Of a DNA stretch of 20,000 nt, positions 4,101 to 20,000 are shown piece after piece. The translations under genes were made by a program, and so were the position numbers. Within the stretch, counting starts at the first letter, position 1. The number at the start of each line of letters is the position of its first letter. The notes beneath the pieces were generated by a model, which worked only from the letters and a program-made list of their open reading frames with translations, made no database searches and was not told the DNA's origin. The stretch lies in IMG/VR virus record IMGVR_UViG_2061766007_000075, positions 45,783 to 65,782 of that record; one strand, given 5' to 3'. Source of the stretch: an uncultured virus (IMG/VR IMGVR_UViG_2061766007_000075) (taxonomy: Duplodnaviria > Heunggongvirae > Uroviricota > Caudoviricetes).

Positions 4101-6423
4101 TAAGGAGATTGCCCAAGTTAAGTTTGATAAGATTAAGAAGGATATTGAAGAACAACTTCAGAAACTTTCTAATGAGATTAAACGTAGTGAGGCGGCACAA
4201 AATTTCTATCGTAATATTCTTGGAACAACTGGTGATACGGAATTATCAAGAACACTGACGGTCGCTGTCTATGGCAATATTGGCGAAGATTTTGAGAAGC
4301 GCATCGAAAAGGAACTTGATAATGCTTTTGCGCGCATAGACCCGAGCGAGATGGACCAAACCGCTTATGAGGAATTAATTAAGGCGCGTGTAGATAAGAA
4401 CTTCGATGCTATTAGGGACAACATAGACAAGATACCCGAGAATGTTAGGTCTATGTATTTGAAGATTCTTGATGAGGTAGACAAGTATAACTCAAGCCTT
4501 CAGAAAAAGTTTGCTGACGCCATCGCCAAGTCTGGCAACGCCGCTCAAAGAATTGCCACCATTGAGGCGAAGGCAAATCAAGATATTCTAGACCTTCAGC
4601 AAGCGGCGGCGCAAGCCACAGCCAAGGCCAAGACACAGAAAGAAAAAGACGCGATTAACGCAGCTCTAGAGCAATCAATAGAAATGATAGAGGGCAAGAA
4701 GCGTCTTGACATTTTTAAGGCGAGCGAGGACTATATAAGATACTTTGCCGAGTTGAATGTCATGACTGCAGAAGAGGCGGCTAAAATACAAGGAGATTTT
4801 AAGCAACAACTTTACGACGCTTTCAGGACAGGCGCCATAGGTGCTGATGAACTTGTTCGCTCTCTGCGCGCGGTCGATAAACAGTTCAATAAGATAACAA
4901 AAATATCAACGGATTTCACAACATATCTTTCTGATGGCATTGACGGCATCATTAAGCGTTTCGAAGACTATGCCACGACGGTAGAATATATCGGCGCAAA
5001 GATTGGCAAAGGGGAATCCTTGACTGCGGGAGAGACGCAGTTCGCCGACAAGATGCTTAAGAGATTTGCAAGCACTTATGGCGACGACCAAATTAAGAAT
5101 GTAAAGAGCGTTTCCGAACTTTTAGAACAATTCCCTAAAAACAAGGAAGGGCTACAATCCGCTGGTATGGCCTTCTCTCAGATGGGGCAAGGTATGTCGG
5201 CTATGGCGGGCAAGGGTTCTGCCGCCCTCGCCATCGTCGATGCTATCTTCAAGGCGATTAACGGCGCTATTACGGGCATCCAAGAGTTTATCGACGAGCT
5301 GAACCGCACGCGTACCGAGGAGAACAAAGTCGCGGAGGGAATGAAGTACATCAGCGACATAAACAAATATGTTTATGAGGGATGGGAAAAAGTAAAGGCA
5401 GGAGATGTTATCGGCTCCTTGATGAACCTTGCTTCTGCAGTCGCTTCTGTTACAAGCAATATTCAAGAGGACAAAGTTAAGCGGTTCAACGACGAAATTA
5501 AGGACCAAGACCGCCTCTTGAAGCGTCTAACCTATTCTTACGAGCGCTTGACTCAGCAAGAGGAGAAACTCTTCGGCGCCGACTTTATCGAGTCGCAGAA
5601 TCAGAAACTCGCGGTGCTTCAAGCACAAAGGGAAGCATATCTTCGTCAAGCGGCGGCAGAAGCGGCGAAAGGCAAGAGCTCTGATAGCGACAAGGTTCAA
5701 GAGTACAAGGATTTGGCTCGCGACATCGCGGACCAAATCTCTGACATGTACGACGAGATACAGCAGAAGTTCCTCGGCACCGACCTTGCGTCGGCTTCGC
5801 GTGATTTCGCGTCTGCATGGATTGACGCATACGAGGAATTCAGTAGCACGACAGATGCCATCAATGACAAGTTCGAGGAGATGATTAAGAACATGGTCAT
5901 TGAGTCTATGGCGGCTAAGATTATTGAGCGGAACCTTTCTTCTGTCTTTGACCTTGTTGACAAACTCACCGAAGATGACGGTCAGCTTACAGTAACCGAC
6001 GCGGCGTTAGTCGCCTCCAAGATGAAGGGCTCCATCGAGGATATCAATGTCGGCATGACGAACCTCATGACTCAGCTCGATGCCGTCGGCATCAACTTCC
6101 GCTCAATGGGTTCGGGGCTCACTGGTATCGCGAAGGACTTTCAAGGTGCTAGCGAGGAGTCTATTCTTGGACTCTCCGCTGGGGTCAACACGCAAAACTT
6201 CTACATGTCGCTTATCCACGACGACGTACAGACAATTAAGTCGATTCTGTCGGGGACAACGACGGCTCCGAACATCAATGTTTCCGTGCTCCCCGAGACA
6301 GACCCGCTGCGAAACCATGTTTCAAACATCAATGTAAATCTCGCGGAATTGCTCCGTAAAGTAAACAGTGTAATTACTTCGGGAAGTTCGAGCACAAATA
6401 CAGCTTTTATTGCTGTGAAGTAA
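1123..6423 (+). CDS. Tape measure protein, 1766 aa
   Basis: Contains a recognisable tape-measure domain (SPFEIKDLVSFTKQLSAY...LADISAGLGVDMSRLVLAYGQVRAASVLRGQELRQFTEAGIP), long Ala/Lys/Glu-rich helical tracts and a hydrophobic segment (YAIALAGIAALVAILIKF). It follows the chaperone. Confidence 0.95.
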   Translation: MAEGVKIPVVIDIEGAFNAAAKSVKTAMDPLRDAIESAPLSLFIDVKIPNKGKKVLIELFDDARTSTEEFQIALNQVIQKIDKIALKGGFNLGKGLSEDERNLLEAATLLERKLTGVGDEASAMTRVFSINMKRAEADLQKYASQLDKLTIKQNRLKKFDANGLVSTKQSSQYKRVSTEIDGMNLKIAQTRQFLAACSVELDKITHGSKNAGVAMSVLPSEAVKMAEGFRQGSVYLAQWNAALGTANNRMGMLLKSAASLFALHAATSFVRNVREVTSEFEMQRVALGGIIQDTEMAGKLFKRIKAAAIQSPFEIKDLVSFTKQLSAYRIETENLFDVTMRLADISAGLGVDMSRLVLAYGQVRAASVLRGQELRQFTEAGIPLVELLAKKFEKLGRVGTTTADVFELISKRAVPFRMIEEIFNDMTSAGGIFYKMQEKQSETLKGQWMKLKDALSIMYDEIGNTRVVHGAMETLMKDAMKLMQNWKEASKYIGIAVTALTAYKIALINARIAENALTAAQVSEISALQLNVVQRNRVIASLFGETAATKVQVAMGNLYVAVKRRELAATNLFTASLYRMTAALLANPYAIALAGIAALVAILIKFTIKSKEAKITVDAFQKSIASFDKAKTHANDISNLCDVYDELSKKATRTKDEEEKLARVTKDLAKAYPSAVSGAENHTRAITLDTTAIRERNDAVKEAIKLSLLQDKAMAEAEISNLQAEYNQISETLKRGTVIKGAFGGTWEEVLTEEQKARLGSRLIELEQLLGDFREASNEAEESIKEFSAELIGPEVPKFFGDAWRMQISQYTVMLDEAAGKTQVFGDDQIKQFKSVKDACDEAAKGYKEQAKLVEFYAKALEKATGKQKEQLLSLKTNAEAMKNIYGQVLTDYNAWNLVEEKKPRGGDKRLSNLNKRISEIKNAYNKYNELLKYVSKENALLNIDEMFPTLEGWQPTYENMLGKLEKELKDVEESRKKKPYDPVLLDMERVLRKEIAQVKFDKIKKDIEEQLQKLSNEIKRSEAAQNFYRNILGTTGDTELSRTLTVAVYGNIGEDFEKRIEKELDNAFARIDPSEMDQTAYEELIKARVDKNFDAIRDNIDKIPENVRSMYLKILDEVDKYNSSLQKKFADAIAKSGNAAQRIATIEAKANQDILDLQQAAAQATAKAKTQKEKDAINAALEQSIEMIEGKKRLDIFKASEDYIRYFAELNVMTAEEAAKIQGDFKQQLYDAFRTGAIGADELVRSLRAVDKQFNKITKISTDFTTYLSDGIDGIIKRFEDYATTVEYIGAKIGKGESLTAGETQFADKMLKRFASTYGDDQIKNVKSVSELLEQFPKNKEGLQSAGMAFSQMGQGMSAMAGKGSAALAIVDAIFKAINGAITGIQEFIDELNRTRTEENKVAEGMKYISDINKYVYEGWEKVKAGDVIGSLMNLASAVASVTSNIQEDKVKRFNDEIKDQDRLLKRLTYSYERLTQQEEKLFGADFIESQNQKLAVLQAQREAYLRQAAAEAAKGKSSDSDKVQEYKDLARDIADQISDMYDEIQQKFLGTDLASASRDFASAWIDAYEEFSSTTDAINDKFEEMIKNMVIESMAAKIIERNLSSVFDLVDKLTEDDGQLTVTDAALVASKMKGSIEDINVGMTNLMTQLDAVGINFRSMGSGLTGIAKDFQGASEESILGLSAGVNTQNFYMSLIHDDVQTIKSILSGTTTAPNINVSVLPETDPLRNHVSNINVNLAELLRKVNSVITSGSSSTNTAFIAVK

Positions 6424-12579: not shown

Positions 12580-13167
12580 ATGCCTAGTAGCACATTAGAC
12601 CCCGGCCACTGGAGAGGCGAGCCAGGAAAAGGTTCTCCAGACGGACGCTTCAAGGAATGGGCGTTTACGCACGACGTCGCATTGATTGCGACAGAGACAC
12701 TAAACGCAAAGGGCATCACCTGCACAAACATACACCCAAGCGGCGAGGATTACCTATCCTTGCCCAATAGGTGTAAGAAAATCAAGGAAATCACTAAGGT
12801 GCGCCCAGACAATATCAACGTGGATATTCACGTCAACGCAGCAGGGATGGGCGACAAGTGGTATAGCGCACGTGGCTGTCAGGTTAACACGAAGTTGTCC
12901 CCCGATCCCGAGTCTATACGGTTGGCAAACATTATATACGATGAGATGGTCGCCAAGGGGTTTAAGGTCCGGCCAGACAGCCCGACCAGACACTATCGTC
13001 CGAAGAATCTCGCGATGTGCCGGGATGCAGGCTGCCCGTCCGTGCTGATTGAATTCTTCTTCATGGACAATGAGCAGGACCTGGAGTACCTCTGCTCGGC
13101 TATGTCTATATACGAATGTGCCGAGGTTGTTTCGAATAGCATCTTGAAGTATTTCGGCAAGTTATGA
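12580..13167 (+). CDS. Endolysin, N-acetylmuramoyl-L-alanine amidase (Amidase_3 family), 195 aa
   Basis: The Zn-amidase motifs appear in order: LDPGH, E (FKEW), IHVNAA and PSVLIEFFFMDN (catalytic Glu). Confidence 0.92.
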   Translation: MPSSTLDPGHWRGEPGKGSPDGRFKEWAFTHDVALIATETLNAKGITCTNIHPSGEDYLSLPNRCKKIKEITKVRPDNINVDIHVNAAGMGDKWYSARGCQVNTKLSPDPESIRLANIIYDEMVAKGFKVRPDSPTRHYRPKNLAMCRDAGCPSVLIEFFFMDNEQDLEYLCSAMSIYECAEVVSNSILKYFGKL

Positions 13168-13676
13168 ACAAGACATCTATCATACTCGCCTGCATTCTTG
13201 CGGCAATACTCATCATCGGGGCTTTCGTCGGCGGATTTTTCGCTGGCAAGGGGAAGCGGCCCGATGTGCAGAGAGACACGGTGACGACTGTCGTTACAAT
13301 CCGTGACACGCTTACCGTCTATGAGCCGAAAGAGGTCACAAAGACGGTTATCCGTAAAGAGTACATAGCGGTCACGGATACGGTTGTCGTGAATGATACG
13401 ACATACATCGCCCTCCCCGTGGAGAGAAAGGAATACAGGGATTCTAACTACTATGCCGTGGTATCTGGTATCAACCCCTCGCTGGATGAGATTTCGGTAT
13501 ATCCAGAGACCAAGATTATCACCAAGGAGGTGACGGTCTATGAGAAGAAGAAACCCACCCGTTTCGGTGTCGGACTGCAAGTGGGCTTCGGTGCGCAGTA
13601 CGGCATAAGGTCAAAGCAATTCGATGCCGGGCCGTATGTGGGCATCGGCATATCATATAACTTCGTAAGATTCTAA
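13164..13676 (+). CDS. Putative spanin-like lysis protein: N-terminal TM, V/T-rich beta linker, C-terminal amphipathic beta-hairpin ending in Phe, 170 aa
   Basis: ATGA-coupled to the endolysin. TM IILACILAAILIIGAFVGGFF, repeated RDT/TDT/NDT motifs, and C-terminus FGVGLQVGFGAQYG...GPYVGIGISYNFVRF. Confidence 0.6.
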   Translation: MNKTSIILACILAAILIIGAFVGGFFAGKGKRPDVQRDTVTTVVTIRDTLTVYEPKEVTKTVIRKEYIAVTDTVVVNDTTYIALPVERKEYRDSNYYAVVSGINPSLDEISVYPETKIITKEVTVYEKKKPTRFGVGLQVGFGAQYGIRSKQFDAGPYVGIGISYNFVRF

Positions 13677-17500: not shown

Positions 17501-18306
17501 AGAAACTCGTCAAGGACAGCATCGACGCGGTGGCGGATGCGCTCGGCAAGATGGGTGTCATCTCGCAGGTGCAGACCTGGAGCGGGACGGGCAGTCAGCC
17601 TCGCACCTACACGATAGATCCCGACTCCATTGTCCGTGGAATTATTCCGCAGGCGAACATAGACCTCTTTGAGAGCGCAGGAGCGGTGTTCAATGCAACG
17701 AGCGGATATTTTGAGCTGAACGGACTGACGGATATTTCATACGATGAAATGAAGGAGATTTATGGATATAAAGGTGCTTCCGATATGGCTGGGCAGGTCG
17801 GTAACAATACATTACGGAATCTCCCTACTTGTCCGAGAACCCTTTTCCCCATAACGCAGAACGTGGCGGGGGCAAGCTATATAAACTTCCTGCGAGTTTG
17901 CACAACATCTTATAATCCATCGCGGATAGAGTCGATATGTATAGGAAAGTCCTCATCTGATTTACTGATGGGGAATAATATGGAAAACCTTATATATAAT
18001 TGCCAATATCTAAAATACGTCGGAATTCAAGGGTCTCTTAATCCTACATCATCTGCTTCCGTCACTAACTTTGCGACGTCGTGCTATAATTTGGAGGAGA
18101 TTAAGATAACAGGCTTGGCGAAAAACATAGGTTTCAACCAATCTTCCTTATTGTCTGCTGCCTCCGTTGCCTACATGATTACCAACGCCGGAACTGCGAC
18201 CATCACCATCACCCTGCACGCCACGGCATACGCAAGAGCAAATGCCGATGCAGATGTGCAGGCAGCACTCTCGGCTCATACAAATGTATCACTCGCAAGC
18301 GCTTAA
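14515..18306 (+). CDS. Tail fibre/receptor-binding protein with internal repeats, 1263 aa
   Basis: Fibre motifs TKLSELEND, LVSGTNIKTINGSTILGSGNL, LSEEEKAQARTNIGA and YPSAKAV; a CBM5/12-like insert (AWSATKTYASGDLVCYDDLLYKS); a degenerate LRR-like C-terminal head. Confidence 0.8.
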   Translation: MAGTKLTQTGEQVQYLLNNAIQTKLSELENDMGYITEDAVAEALTGKADKGFATTNQSVYIKYGVSDKCAYIVRISFDSRAIEDTILLYQSGLTADGPRLYKLTDSGKAIEVDLMGKMWTSERWCRISCFVVGYKSMRLIPLYDETDIADSLPDGVTYIEGYRVSPLPLYQERLVDGENIKTIDGTAILGEGNLALRDVKYVSQSLSEEEKAQARTNIGASSASDIETINAKIPSAASPSNQLADKAYVNEKIQTETATFKGCYDDWEDILYGGVTADNNDYLVLLDASGYAPLVDGNGSYFIDEVVTDHNTLYKCIAPVNYEETPEAPLPYNDEENLHWEEASSNPKYEGTWRFKYAANGAYNPYNWLPEYQINEEPLTQAQLDALNSGITANKVSKLDALPTNSELETALGGKEDKTNKVNTIVGNESNTTKYASTKAVADAIAKVKASYWDASSDKDFTIRLDESVSTLRLDIFAETSDLPAEKGKAIIILNTTATASEASVIELAGTSLLGYQLVTYNGHKYFYLDRRGGAVVDVNIDVYVTLLSGTLPTVHLYDADVLYDGGATFTDFAAVTRFQETLVSGTNIKTINGSTILGSGNLEINGAFKAEYGTTTYAEVSAAFNAGKVVTIEVEWASGYETLYLTSYNGDTGLFFFSSPVEQDMIRSCYVDDADNWSSIFTFEPQMYALVTALSSSSDNSHYPSAKAVYDELATKASATIETYIPAQASANNQLADKNFVNSSIQTATATFKGNWETWADVPTDYTDYPDETKPDNNDYMVVRDARGYAPAWSATKTYASGDLVCYDDLLYKSLESHQHGNQPDESPSYWEMVDSNPAYEGTWRFKYNGSWDADGKEGWRPEYQVNEKPLTAAQLAALNSGITDTKVAKLDALPATIPTEVFWCTYGTTTYAEITAAISAGKAVMLLYNSNRQFTLAGLHAGSYAFNETSGSTIYTIECSTQSAWTHTGVAWEKTSYKKSSWSSAPNNTNYPSEKLVKDSIDAVADALGKMGVISQVQTWSGTGSQPRTYTIDPDSIVRGIIPQANIDLFESAGAVFNATSGYFELNGLTDISYDEMKEIYGYKGASDMAGQVGNNTLRNLPTCPRTLFPITQNVAGASYINFLRVCTTSYNPSRIESICIGKSSSDLLMGNNMENLIYNCQYLKYVGIQGSLNPTSSASVTNFATSCYNLEEIKITGLAKNIGFNQSSLLSAASVAYMITNAGTATITITLHATAYARANADADVQAALSAHTNVSLASA
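15211..15723 (+). repeat. Copy 1 of a 171-aa (513-nt) diverged intragenic duplication
   Basis: IPSAASPSNQLADK...YEGTWRFKY...PEYQINEEPLT...LNSGIT...KLDALP. The 18-mer AACCAGCTTGCGGACAAG at 15235 is identical to that at 16714. Confidence 0.9.
16690..17202 (+). repeat. Copy 2 of the 171-aa intragenic duplication (offset 1479 nt)
   Basis: IPAQASANNQLADK...YEGTWRFKY...PEYQVNEKPLT...LNSGIT...KLDALP. Confidence 0.9.
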
Positions 18307-18310
18307 CGAT

Positions 18311-18502
18311 ATGAAGAACGAAATGAAAGCAAAGGACGGGATGTGGCTCACGCAGGCCACACTCGAAAACGAGGACGAGCGCTCCTTCTGGAAGAAGGTC
18401 TGCGGCTACGGCGACCTCGAGGCACTATTCACCCTCTACACCGACGAGCAGAAGGCGCAGTGGGAGGAAGAACACCCGCAGGAAGAACCCATAAACGACT
18501 AA
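18311..18502 (+). CDS. Small acidic protein following the fibre (possible fibre chaperone), 63 aa
   Basis: ATG lies 4 nt after the fibre stop (MKNEMKAKDGMWLTQA...). The track start at 18242 lies inside the fibre gene. Confidence 0.7.
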   Translation: MKNEMKAKDGMWLTQATLENEDERSFWKKVCGYGDLEALFTLYTDEQKAQWEEEHPQEEPIND

Positions 18503-18506
18503 CGAT

Positions 18507-18800
18507 ATGAAAGACTTTTTCAAGAAGATCGCGGCGTTCTTTACAGCGCCCAAGAAACTCTCACACATTTTTATCATCAACTCGATAGCGATGTGTGTGT
18601 TCGTATTCCTTCTGTACTTCGGGCGCATCCGCCTCGGTTATTTCGCGGCAAACATCGTCGCTGTCTTAGGCGCGTTAGGCTACGAGGTAATTGCGTACAA
18701 GCATTTAGAGAAGTCCTCTTTTGAATGGAGCGACCTTTGGGCTGACATGATGGGGATTATCCTATTCAACGCGCAGTCAATCTTCTACATGCTCAAGTGA
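18507..18800 (+). CDS. Small multi-pass membrane protein, VanZ-like motif pattern, 97 aa
   Basis: KLSH followed by a TM, a second TM ending in E (LGYE), then FEWSDLWADMMG before a third hydrophobic stretch. This fits the H...E...D-x-x-A-D-x-x-G pattern. Confidence 0.55.
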   Translation: MKDFFKKIAAFFTAPKKLSHIFIINSIAMCVFVFLLYFGRIRLGYFAANIVAVLGALGYEVIAYKHLEKSSFEWSDLWADMMGIILFNAQSIFYMLK

Positions 18801-18807
18801 TGCGTAG

Positions 18808-18987
18808 ATGGCCAAGGTACGAGTAAAGATAATTCCAAAGCCGAAGAAGAGCGGCGTGAAACTTGCGAGTGCAACGGTTCGCGTCGCTCCCATTGCTCGT
18901 CCTACAGGAAAGCCTATCTATCAGACCACGGCACAGATACACGCGAAGATATACACGACAAGCAGTGGACAACCAAGACGCTATTAA
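18808..18987 (+). CDS. Small highly basic protein, 59 aa (not in the ORF track)
   Basis: MAKVRVKIIPKPKKSGVKLASATVRVAPIARPTGKPIYQTTAQIHAKIYTTSSGQPRRY: 13 K/R and no D/E. It starts 7 nt after the previous stop and fills the gap to the next gene. Confidence 0.6.
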   Translation: MAKVRVKIIPKPKKSGVKLASATVRVAPIARPTGKPIYQTTAQIHAKIYTTSSGQPRRY

Positions 18988-19354
18988 GTATATTATTGGT
19001 AAGCTGAGAGCGATCACCACGGCAGTTCAGATTAAACCTTTTATCTACGCTTCTCTCTATATCGGTGTTCTCGCCTCCTATCTTTTTGTCACGGACCGTG
19101 TCTTGGCTATCCTTGATACATTGTTCTATGTCTCCCCGATAGTGGTCATCGGCAATCTACTCGAGTCCCGCATCTTGAAGTTATGCAAATGGCACCGCGC
19201 GAGCTGCATCTTACCTTTATGCCCTCAAGTTAATCTCTTCATTGACAGATACATTTATGAGTTTTCGTTCTATGCCGAACTCGCACACATCATAATGATA
19301 ATCGCGATGACCGCTCTTTTATTGGTCTCGGCATACAAAGTTTTCATGAAATGA
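18965..19354 (+). CDS. Multi-pass membrane protein with an LCKWHR motif, about 129 aa
   Basis: Three to four hydrophobic segments. GTG 18965 is preferred over TTG 18863, whose extension overlaps the basic ORF. ATGA-coupled to the HTH gene. Confidence 0.7.
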   Translation: MDNQDAIKYIIGKLRAITTAVQIKPFIYASLYIGVLASYLFVTDRVLAILDTLFYVSPIVVIGNLLESRILKLCKWHRASCILPLCPQVNLFIDRYIYEFSFYAELAHIIMIIAMTALLLVSAYKVFMK

Positions 19355-19638
19355 CGGAACAAGATTTTATCATTGAGGTTCTTGACCTTTTCAAGAGCAA
19401 GATTAAGAACAACAACTGCACGAAAGAACAAACCGATGCGCTCTATAAGGTCGCATCCGAGAACTTGCCGATATTCGCTTCCGCAGAAGAAATCGCAGAG
19501 CACTATGGGAAATCGCTAACAGCCGTTCACAGCGTCATCAAGAACAAGATGACCGAGAAGCCTCGGAGGAATCTCACGCTTTACAACTTCAAGTTGTTCC
19601 GCAGATTAGTGCCATCATCTTGGCAAAAGCCCCACTGA
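19351..19638 (+). CDS. Putative helix-turn-helix DNA-binding protein, 95 aa
   Basis: ASAEEIAEHYGKSLTAVHSVIKNK fits the helix-G-turn-helix pattern; the C-terminus is basic. Confidence 0.6.
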   Translation: MTEQDFIIEVLDLFKSKIKNNNCTKEQTDALYKVASENLPIFASAEEIAEHYGKSLTAVHSVIKNKMTEKPRRNLTLYNFKLFRRLVPSSWQKPH

Positions 19639-19662
19639 TTATCAATGACATAACTAAATCTT

Positions 19663-19691
19663 GCCCATTGCTTCATCGCGGTGGGCTTTTT
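19663..19691 (+). terminator. Putative intrinsic terminator
   Basis: Stem GCCCATTGC (19663-19671)/GCGGTGGGC (19678-19686) with 2 G-U pairs, a 6-nt loop and TTTTT, 24 nt after the HTH stop. Confidence 0.6.
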
Positions 19692-19706
19692 CGTCAACTT
19701 TGCATC

Positions 19707-19730
19707 AGACAATCGTGGCCACGAGCGTCT
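19707..19730. promoter_or_regulatory. Palindromic operator or 5'-UTR hairpin AGAC-aa-TCGTGGCCACGA-gc-GTCT
   Basis: Perfect 12-bp palindrome at 19713-19724 with AGAC/GTCT outer arms, just downstream of a near-consensus -7 element CAACTTTG (19695-19702). Confidence 0.45.
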
Positions 19731-19764
19731 AGTGTGAAGTTTAATTTTTAAATGCTAAATAACT

Positions 19765-20000
19765 ATGGCAGAGGACAAGACAATTATTATGCCTGACAAC
19801 CAGAACGGTTGGGGCAACATCCCGTTTGCTATGACTCTCCCCCTGTGGGGCAACGGTTATGGCGCTTACGGTAACTACGGTGGATTTGGCAGCGGATTCG
19901 GACCTTTCGGCACCGGCGGATTCATCCCCGGTATTCTCGGAGGTATCCTCGGCGGTCTGATCCCCGGATTCTTCGGTGGTAACGGCTTCGGCTGGAGCGG
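19765..20000 (+). CDS. Gly/aromatic-rich protein, 3'-truncated (not in the ORF track)
   Basis: ATG after an AT-rich leader, open to the window end: MAEDKTIIMPDNQNGWGNIPFAMTLPLWGNGYGAYGNYGGFGSGFGPFGTGGFIPGILGGILGGLIPGFFGGNGFGWS. Confidence 0.8.
   Translation, partial: MAEDKTIIMPDNQNGWGNIPFAMTLPLWGNGYGAYGNYGGFGSGFGPFGTGGFIPGILGGILGGLIPGFFGGNGFGWS

Follow-up and report, generated by a model that had tools for sequence, protein, structure and literature searches.

A conserved unit of three small coupled genes at a predicted operon boundary in rumen and gut phages

We analysed a stretch of 20,000 nucleotides (nt) from an uncultured virus of the Caudoviricetes (IMG/VR record IMGVR_UViG_2061766007_000075). 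This stretch, called the window below, covers positions 45783-65782 and thus the last 20 kb of the 65,782-bp viral record, which is classed as linear and 91% complete. Near its end, three small genes follow each other with overlapping ends. They encode a very basic protein of 59 amino acids (aa), a membrane protein of 129 aa and a helix-turn-helix (HTH) protein of 95 aa, and are called the trio here. A terminator-like hairpin, a promoter-like box, an inverted repeat and the beginning of a glycine-rich (Gly-rich) gene come after them. An initial annotation of this DNA had listed three tightly overlapped genes, namely a 59-aa basic open reading frame (ORF), a 129-aa protein with the motif LCKWHRASC and a 95-aa HTH protein coupled to it through ATGA, and all of them were found at the positions that it gave. 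Judged by sequence comparison, the trio consists of three real, translationally coupled genes, which form a conserved unit in a siphophage clade of rumen and gut. The coordinates of all features are collected in Table 1. L-numbers denote the viral loci that were compared; L016 is this phage's own contig and L056 is the crAss-like phage cr4_1.

Table 1. Features of the trio region and of the genes upstream of it in the window
Feature	Position	Strand	Details
Very basic, non-hydrophobic 59-aa protein, new family	18808-18987	+	ORF, relatives, selection
Four-helix membrane protein of 129 aa, motif C74-x-W76-H77-x3-C81, new family	18965-19354	+	GTG start
95-aa protein, N-terminal helical hairpin and C-terminal winged HTH (predicted), new family	19351-19638	+	ATGA overlap with the membrane gene
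Intrinsic-terminator-like hairpin and T run	19663-19691	+	Hairpin 19663-19686, 9 pairs, 6 of them G-C, then TTTTT
-7-like promoter box CAACTTTG	19695-19702	+	7 of 8 positions agree with the Bacteroidetes consensus TAnnTTTG
Imperfect inverted repeat	19696-19741		26-nt arms 19696-19721 and 19716-19741, 77% complementarity
A/T-rich leader motif TTTAATTTTTAAA	19740-19752	+	13 nt before the ATG; relatives carry TTTAAYYTTWAA-like motifs
Gly-rich gene, first 78 codons	19765-20000	+	Remainder at contig base 1 (L016 1-663, frame 1)
Endolysin (Amidase_3)	12580-13167		
DUF6808 protein	13164-13676		N-terminal hydrophobic segment
Fibre-like protein, 1263 aa	14515-18306		CBM_5_12 match
97-aa ORF	18507-18800		Two or three hydrophobic segments; directly upstream of the trio

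Relatives of the trio were searched for among named phages and in viral contigs. A DNA search with 18200-20000 and tblastn searches with the HTH and membrane proteins gave no match in 50,697 named phage records. In the viral contigs, the alignment of the HTH family led to 14 loci and the alignment of the membrane protein led to 37 loci, including six near-identical pairs, and a single-sequence scan with the HTH protein alone gave no locus. The HTH gene follows the membrane gene in 35 of these 37 loci, and the overlap or abutment between the stop codon of the one and the start codon of the other recurs across loci. The basic ORF was detected by jackhmmer, intact and with an ATG start, in 25 of the 37, and six further loci (L045, L047, L048, L052, L053 and L054) were seen by eye to contain a very basic ORF of 46-72 aa that abuts or overlaps the start of the membrane gene. 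The next gene after the trio is the Gly-rich gene in 27 of the 37 loci. Two loci (L022 and L028) end too early to tell, and four others (L037, L042, L045 and L047) have instead a gene of 164-188 aa with a hydrophobic Gly/Ala-rich segment and a helical (membrane or coiled-coil) part; L046, the near-identical twin of L047, was not inspected for its downstream gene. All relatives come from one group of 60-75-kb gut and rumen phage contigs.

Two of the checks suggested along with the initial annotation concern synteny and protein families. The synteny that it asked for across related phages is present in these rumen and gut loci, and the profile searches, which might have given the three genes known functions, assigned no family to any of them: scans of all alignment members, too, placed none of the trio proteins in a Pfam or PHROG family. 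None of the titles and abstracts found on lysis in Bacteroides and crAss-like phages concerns the trio, and the families were sought there under no other name. Two side observations concern single loci. The HTH gene is split into two ORF pieces beside an intact membrane gene in the near-identical loci L046 and L047 (about 4389-4700), and an RVT_1 gene (L042 2029-3219), which may belong to a diversity-generating retroelement, lies about 0.8 kb upstream of the trio in L042.

The 59-aa protein contains 13 K or R residues and no D or E, and no 19-residue window reaches a hydropathy of 1.6. This basic, non-hydrophobic pattern is repeated in 18 relatives, which align with a clear pattern of alternating residues. 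The median ratio of nonsynonymous to synonymous substitution rates (dN/dS) was 0.33 outside the overlap with the membrane gene (18 sequences gave 109 usable pairs; dS was largely saturated). The fractions of non-consensus bases were 0.26, 0.26 and 0.44 at codon positions 1, 2 and 3, so that the third position is the most variable. By these measures, the ORF is a real gene under purifying selection. The conservation of its C-terminus says little, because the same bases encode the start of the membrane gene in another frame. The family gave no consistent Pfam family and no significant match of its sequence profile in the PDB, and the best score in Protein Atlas was 0.76, to unnamed clusters that offer no lead. 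A relationship with ribosomal proteins was considered and rejected, as no Pfam ribosomal family recurs among the members and one member matches Ribosomal_S5_C at E = 0.054.

The GTG start of the membrane gene at 18965 overlaps the 59-aa ORF by 23 nt. An alternative TTG at 18863 would give a protein of 163 aa; the GTG start and the 129-aa form are likely because the relatives begin with M-D-N/S-Q-D at the position equivalent to 18965. A frameshift fusion of the 59-aa and membrane ORFs was rejected, since only the window and L005/L006 have a membrane frame that stays open further upstream. Among 1.84 billion proteins, 132 cluster representatives (50% identity) were found at E ≤ 0.001; the longest has 203 aa, and there are therefore no fused forms. 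In 54 sequences of the family, C74 is invariant and W76, H77 and C81 are each at least 90% conserved, C81 being replaced in a few members. The AlphaFold2 model (predicted local distance difference test, pLDDT, 89.6) has helices at 3-38, 44-53, 58-70, 75-82, 85-97 and 102-128, and hydrophobic stretches are found around 23-66 and 100-129. The conserved motif is placed at the short helix 75-82, with K and R on its flanks, between hydrophobic helices. The distribution of charges suggests that the protein passes the inner membrane four times and that the motif helix faces the cytoplasm.

No consistent Pfam or PHROG family was obtained for the 54 members of the membrane family. Foldseek gave no match to the model in the PDB at E ≤ 0.001, the VIA wide structure search returned only generic helical bundles (best Z score 8.7, which is in the range for unrelated helical models), and Protein Atlas returned only unnamed clusters without a lead (best score 0.84). 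We also compared the motif with that of zinc-binding anti-sigma domains, which is H-x3-C-x2-C. The motif C-x-W-H-x3-C is not followed by C-x2-C in the membrane protein, and no such domain was matched in Pfam.

The HTH family comprises 66 clusters at 60-100% identity, and a broader alignment led to 486 clusters at 90% identity. Longer forms did not turn up, and neither the 66 nor the 486 clusters carry a precomputed Pfam domain. C23 and P71 are invariant in the family. The AlphaFold2 model (pLDDT 77) consists of two N-terminal helices, an HTH formed by helices 45-52 and 56-66, a short strand and a last helix. The best structural match of residues 39-95 was the Xis protein of mycobacteriophage Pukovnik (PDB 4j2n; Z 5.0, root-mean-square deviation 3.0 Å over 51 of 54 residues, 24% identity). 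Further structural matches include Par/ParA proteins, TniQ, other excisionases, a packaging-motor DNA-binding domain, RacA, BldC and MerR-type proteins (including GlnR/TnrA); about 20 of the 50 matches listed are excisionase, MerR-type, Par/ParA, RacA, TniQ or packaging DNA-binding domains, all of them below Z 5. Foldseek gave no match to this model in the PDB at E ≤ 0.001, its values being about 1.

Matches of the HTH protein at the sequence level were marginal. In Pfam only Sigma70_r3 appeared (E = 0.085, 13.4 bits against a cut-off of 25.3), the YlxM structure 1s7o was matched at E = 0.65, and one database source calls one member YlxM-like. The model suggests that the C-terminal half may be an excisionase/MerR-like winged helix, a fold class that would imply DNA binding. 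The superposition on Pukovnik Xis is confined to this C-terminal winged helix. Unlike Xis and the MerR-type proteins, with which it shares no sequence-family match, the 95-aa protein has an additional N-terminal part of two helices containing the invariant cysteine, and its gene, which closes the late operon, has a membrane protein gene and no integrase gene as its neighbour.

The intergenic region between the HTH gene and the next gene was compared in 26 loci. The terminator, the near-consensus -7 box and the new Gly-rich ORF of the initial annotation are all present, and the layout is conserved: in 15 of the 26 loci a similar hairpin and T run separate the HTH stop codon from the box, and a box matching A[ATC][CT]TTTG occurs 29-62 nt upstream of the downstream ATG in all of them. 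In promoters of the Bacteroidota housekeeping sigma factor, the consensus of the -7 element is TAnnTTTG and the -33 element is TTTG. Inspection of the -33 region, which was made by eye only, revealed no clear TTTG at the expected spacing; the terminator hairpin sits there. The late operon closes at this predicted terminator.

The inverted repeat had been described as a perfect palindrome. This holds for its 10-nt core CGTGGCCACG at 19714-19723, which is the only perfect part, and not for the full arms, whose complementarity is incomplete. The repeat is located at the predicted 5' end of the downstream transcript. The leaders fall into two length classes, 8 of 29-44 nt and 18 of 53-62 nt, and the longer ones carry a repeat right after the box. 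The repeat was individually significant (p ≤ 0.05 against shuffled sequences) in 10 of the 26 loci, about 1.3 being expected by chance. In L036, L038 and L048 its arms reach over the box itself. The palindrome is missing in 5 of the 26 loci, all with short leaders, and the sequence of the repeat differs from phage to phage. In L020, L002, L031, L034 and L036 the recognition helix of the HTH protein is nearly identical to that of the window and the repeat is absent or different, with the exception of L036, where a similar repeat with paired changes in the core is present. Because phages with nearly identical recognition helices have unrelated palindromes or none, the palindrome, as far as these comparisons reach, is not a conserved operator of the neighbouring HTH regulator. 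The idea of a palindrome-controlled Gly-rich gene thus finds no support in a repeat that is not conserved in sequence and varies independently of the recognition helix.

In the simplest reading, the palindrome is either a stem-loop that varies between phages and stands at the 5' end of the downstream mRNA, or a variable protein site that has nothing to do with this HTH protein. An RNA hairpin and a DNA palindrome are indistinguishable by sequence here, because G-U pairs are few and both strands fold about equally. A search of 18000-20000 in Rfam at E ≤ 1 gave no match. Closer to the start codon, many loci have an A/T-rich motif of the TTTAAYYTTWAA type upstream of the ATG. The leader motif TTTAATTTTTAA occurs just once more in the genome, at L016 7166-7177, 14 nt before a 344-aa gene on the minus strand; 0.03 copies would be expected by chance in 20 kb. 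We considered the motif as a site for the HTH protein and rejected this, since the leader of the minus-strand gene that contains the sole other copy is A/T-rich, which gives the motif the look of a translation leader.

The Gly-rich gene runs off the end of the window. In related loci, a single ORF of 285-321 aa spans both parts of it, and on this comparison the gene is interrupted by the end of the contig and not by biology. PHROG 16490 is matched by the C-terminal part of the protein (E = 4.7e-27), whose residues 6-204 align with positions 79-286 of the 286-position profile. Behind it come two genes with matches to PHROGs 31654 and 28898, and DUF7841 is found in a further gene; none of these families has an assigned function, and no literature on DUF7841 was found under that name. 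Relatives of the Gly-rich protein were found by tblastn in 32 phage records, which are mostly crAss-like and include Bacteroides phage C3_41T2LP. In cr4_1 the relative stands behind genes annotated as endolysin and holin, and in C3_41T2LP it stands behind recombination genes, a 99-aa HTH ORF and a homing endonuclease. The two genes that follow are also common to these phages (cr4_1 gp17 and gp18, C3_41T2LP gene 34; by eye and by PHROGs 31654 and 28898). The trio is absent from both: hmmsearch gave no match there for the membrane or the basic protein, and only the 99-aa ORF of C3_41T2LP is weakly like the HTH family (hmmsearch E = 0.019 in a tiny database, hhalign probability 31%). As a side observation, the annotated genes of cr4_1 contain in-frame TAG codons under table 11, which is consistent with the stop-codon recoding already described for crAss-like phages.

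An alignment of 19 full-length Gly-rich proteins showed a conserved N-terminus, a hydrophobic segment rich in glycine and aromatic residues, and a helical region with an invariant CCC. The C-terminal tail is also Gly/aromatic, often ending in F or WG, and further cysteines are present. The profile weakly matches the part of influenza HA2 (class I fusion proteins) that contains the fusion peptide and the first helix, at E values of 0.005-0.07. This is a likeness in architecture and composition, not established homology, and it probably explains why PHROG 16490 proteins are labelled 'spike protein/glycoprotein' or 'outer capsid protein/viral fiber' in GenBank. It is possible that the Gly-rich protein is membrane-active or envelope-disrupting, which we offer as a lead only. 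Outer-membrane disruption proteins of the i-spanin kind combine an N-terminal membrane anchor, a periplasmic coiled coil and conserved cysteines, and their genes belong to the lysis region. In comparison, the Gly-rich protein has a hydrophobic segment and the invariant CCC, and no lipoprotein partner was seen.

The gene order of the record leads from replication genes through the large terminase, the portal and the major head protein to a 1766-aa tape measure protein and a 1580-aa tail protein. The Amidase_3 endolysin, the DUF6808 protein, three small ORFs and the 1263-aa fibre-like protein come next, and the trio region is last. From the fibre gene onward, neighbouring genes overlap or are separated by gaps of 4-7 nt. 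Boxes of the consensus type TAnnTTTG precede several other operons of this genome, and because such boxes are of the Bacteroidetes promoter type, the host is probably a member of the Bacteroidota. A search of 185,579 species genomes with the HTH alignment found no relatives of this phage, so there is no prophage copy and no named host among them. DNA sequencing runs containing the stretch are labelled as bovine gut metagenome, and the record itself may come from two of these runs. In run X1, a contig of 45,459 nt is identical to the window over 18700-20000 and extends past base 20000; X1 may be the source of the record, so this contig is not independent evidence. Because the record is cut inside the Gly-rich gene and the X1 contig runs past base 20000, the genome is probably circular or circularly permuted.

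Several observations on neighbouring genes were made in passing. The fibre-like protein has an internal duplication, recognised by eye as two similar blocks that each close with Q-[IV]-N-E-x-P-L-T-x-A-Q-L-x-A-L-N-S-G-I-T. Its gene separates the lysis genes from the trio in the window; in many relatives the lysis genes abut the trio. The 97-aa ORF shows only weak VanZ/MlaE likeness and is another holin-like candidate, and its relatives were found 1-2 kb upstream of the trio in L044, L048 and L052. On the minus strand, L016 9131-9889 encodes a 253-aa protein with a Resolvase N-terminal domain (PHROG 'DNA invertase').

We then turned to the 3.3 kb upstream of the membrane gene and scanned all ORFs of 100 aa or more there; with the six twins left out, these were 87 ORFs in 31 loci. 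Amidase_3, Amidase_2 or Peptidase_M15_3 was present in 8 of the 31 loci and DUF5675, which has a weak Tlde1 likeness, in 5 more, so that lysis-type domains were found in 13 of the 31; DUF6808 was found in 10 of the 31. In many loci the protein directly before the basic ORF has a lipoprotein-like start and a C-terminal hydrophobic segment, the architecture given for unimolecular spanins in a survey of spanins (PMC6139136). L026 contains a Phage_holin_4_1 gene above the Pfam cut-off beside an endolysin-like gene, and the trio is still present; in L030 the match is just below the cut-off. The membrane protein is therefore not needed as 'the' holin, since a recognised holin exists in L026 and other small membrane ORFs are nearby. 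The trio usually seems to close the lysis cassette. The initial annotation stated that nothing here resembles a lysis protein, which is not quite right: many relatives have lysis genes next to the unit. This neighbourhood may be no more than positional, because the upstream genes of L037 and L047 are RusA-like.

As to function, which we can only infer, we tentatively favour the reading that the three genes at the 3' end of the tail/lysis operon serve the lysis region as an accessory or regulatory unit that is expressed late, and that a separate transcription unit follows. The terminator would close the late operon, and the host-type -7-like box directly behind it would start the second unit with the Gly-rich gene as its first gene. 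The basic protein would stay in the cytoplasm and the membrane protein in the inner membrane, and the winged-helix protein would bind DNA as a regulator or an architectural factor, acting together with the other two. Several points weigh against this reading. Genes of related phages can stay tightly syntenic through descent, without any joint function, and the fold match of the HTH protein is weak (Z 5.0). Two of the 37 loci, L041 and L044, have the membrane gene with its motif and no detectable HTH gene. The RusA-like genes upstream in L037 and L047 are not lysis genes, and in the window the trio is 5.6 kb away from the endolysin, behind the fibre-like gene.

A simpler explanation would be that three unrelated small accessory genes are kept together only by the kinship of the phages and the compact end of the operon. 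This agrees with the origin of all relatives in one phage group, with the lack of fused or lengthened forms (at most 203 aa in the membrane family, and no longer HTH proteins) and with the lack of family annotation, but the genes keep their order and their stop/start overlaps in relatives with as little as about 30% protein identity. The trio also persists when the upstream context shifts from lysis to RusA-like genes and when the downstream gene is replaced by another type, and we regard this explanation as rather unlikely. The membrane protein could also be a holin or antiholin with the basic and HTH proteins as its cytoplasmic regulators, the unit setting the time of lysis. Like holins and antiholins, it is a small multi-helix membrane protein that is expressed late and in a coupled manner, at the end of a lysis cassette. 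In many relatives, endolysin-type genes and spanin-like genes (lipoprotein signal and C-terminal hydrophobic segment, or N-terminal hydrophobic segment and DUF6808) stand directly upstream. However, L026, which has a recognised holin, keeps the trio (L030 has the weaker match), other small membrane ORFs with two or three segments lie nearby (18507-18800 in the window, and in L004 and L011), and L037 and L047 have no lysis genes upstream. No holin family appeared among the Pfam and PHROG matches of the 54 members, although holins are very diverse, and a nearly invariant Cys/Trp/His motif with an obligatory HTH partner is unusual for holins. A role as holin or antiholin is thus unlikely in our view.

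The conserved residues raise another idea, in which the membrane protein holds the winged-helix protein via a Cys/His site (metal or thiol) and releases it on a change of the membrane or redox state, thereby switching the neighbouring promoter. C74, W76, H77 and C81 are indeed gathered on one short helix with K/R flanks between hydrophobic helices, C23 is invariant in the HTH family, and the two genes are coupled and almost always found together; yet L041 and L044 have the motif but no HTH gene, a few members have another residue in place of C81, and the motif is not that of the zinc anti-sigma factors. Such a membrane-tethered switch is improbable. We give a similarly small chance to the proposal that the 95-aa protein acts not in transcription but in DNA processing, i.e. 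in recombination directionality or excision, or in DNA recognition during packaging. Its best structural matches are excisionases (Pukovnik Xis, TorI, RdfS and the GIsul2 excisionase) and partition and packaging-motor DNA-binding domains, and the genome has the Resolvase-domain recombinase at L016 9131-9889. All Z scores, however, are at most 5, 29 kb separate the gene from that of the large terminase and 9 kb from that of the recombinase, and no prophage copy was found in the 185,579 species genomes. The initial annotation had compared the layout with peptide-based phage communication, that is, a circuit of peptide, membrane sensor, regulator and target. In the arbitrium system (AimR/AimP/AimX), a pre-peptide with an N-terminal secretion signal is combined with a receptor-regulator that has a large peptide-binding repeat domain. 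The likeness is that a phage has a small ORF near the gene for a DNA-binding protein, and only the layout (small ORF, membrane protein, HTH protein, separate downstream unit) and its conserved synteny speak for such a circuit. In contrast to arbitrium, a membrane protein gene sits between the two, and expression would come from the late operon. The 59-aa protein is strongly basic over its whole length, and because it has no hydrophobic segment of the signal-peptide type it is not a secreted peptide; the conservation of its C-terminus coincides with the overlapping start of the membrane gene. The HTH protein, at 95 aa, has no ligand-binding domain of receptor size, and the palindrome is not a conserved operator. 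A sensing circuit of this kind is very improbable here.

Beyond the favoured reading of a late accessory or regulatory unit, one may speculate, as a long shot, that a module made up of the trio and the next unit completes lysis in Bacteroidales phages. With its fusion-peptide-like segment, coiled coil, Cys cluster and Gly/aromatic tail, the Gly-rich protein would then be a new envelope-disrupting or membrane-fusing factor that replaces spanins. The winged-helix protein would switch the promoter of the Gly-rich gene, and the Cys/His site of the membrane protein would hold or release this regulator as the state of the membrane changes late in infection.

Phages of Bacteroidota are abundant in gut and rumen, and to our knowledge their lysis and late regulation are almost unstudied. 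The survey of spanins places a Bacteroides phage among those without an identifiable spanin (PMC6139136). What is new here is the presence of three families without Pfam or PHROG match at the boundary between lysis genes and a module that is common to crAss-like phages. If the trio consists only of accessory genes, this would be an ordinary annotation of new families. For studies of late gene control or lysis in these phages, the trio offers a defined and testable starting point.

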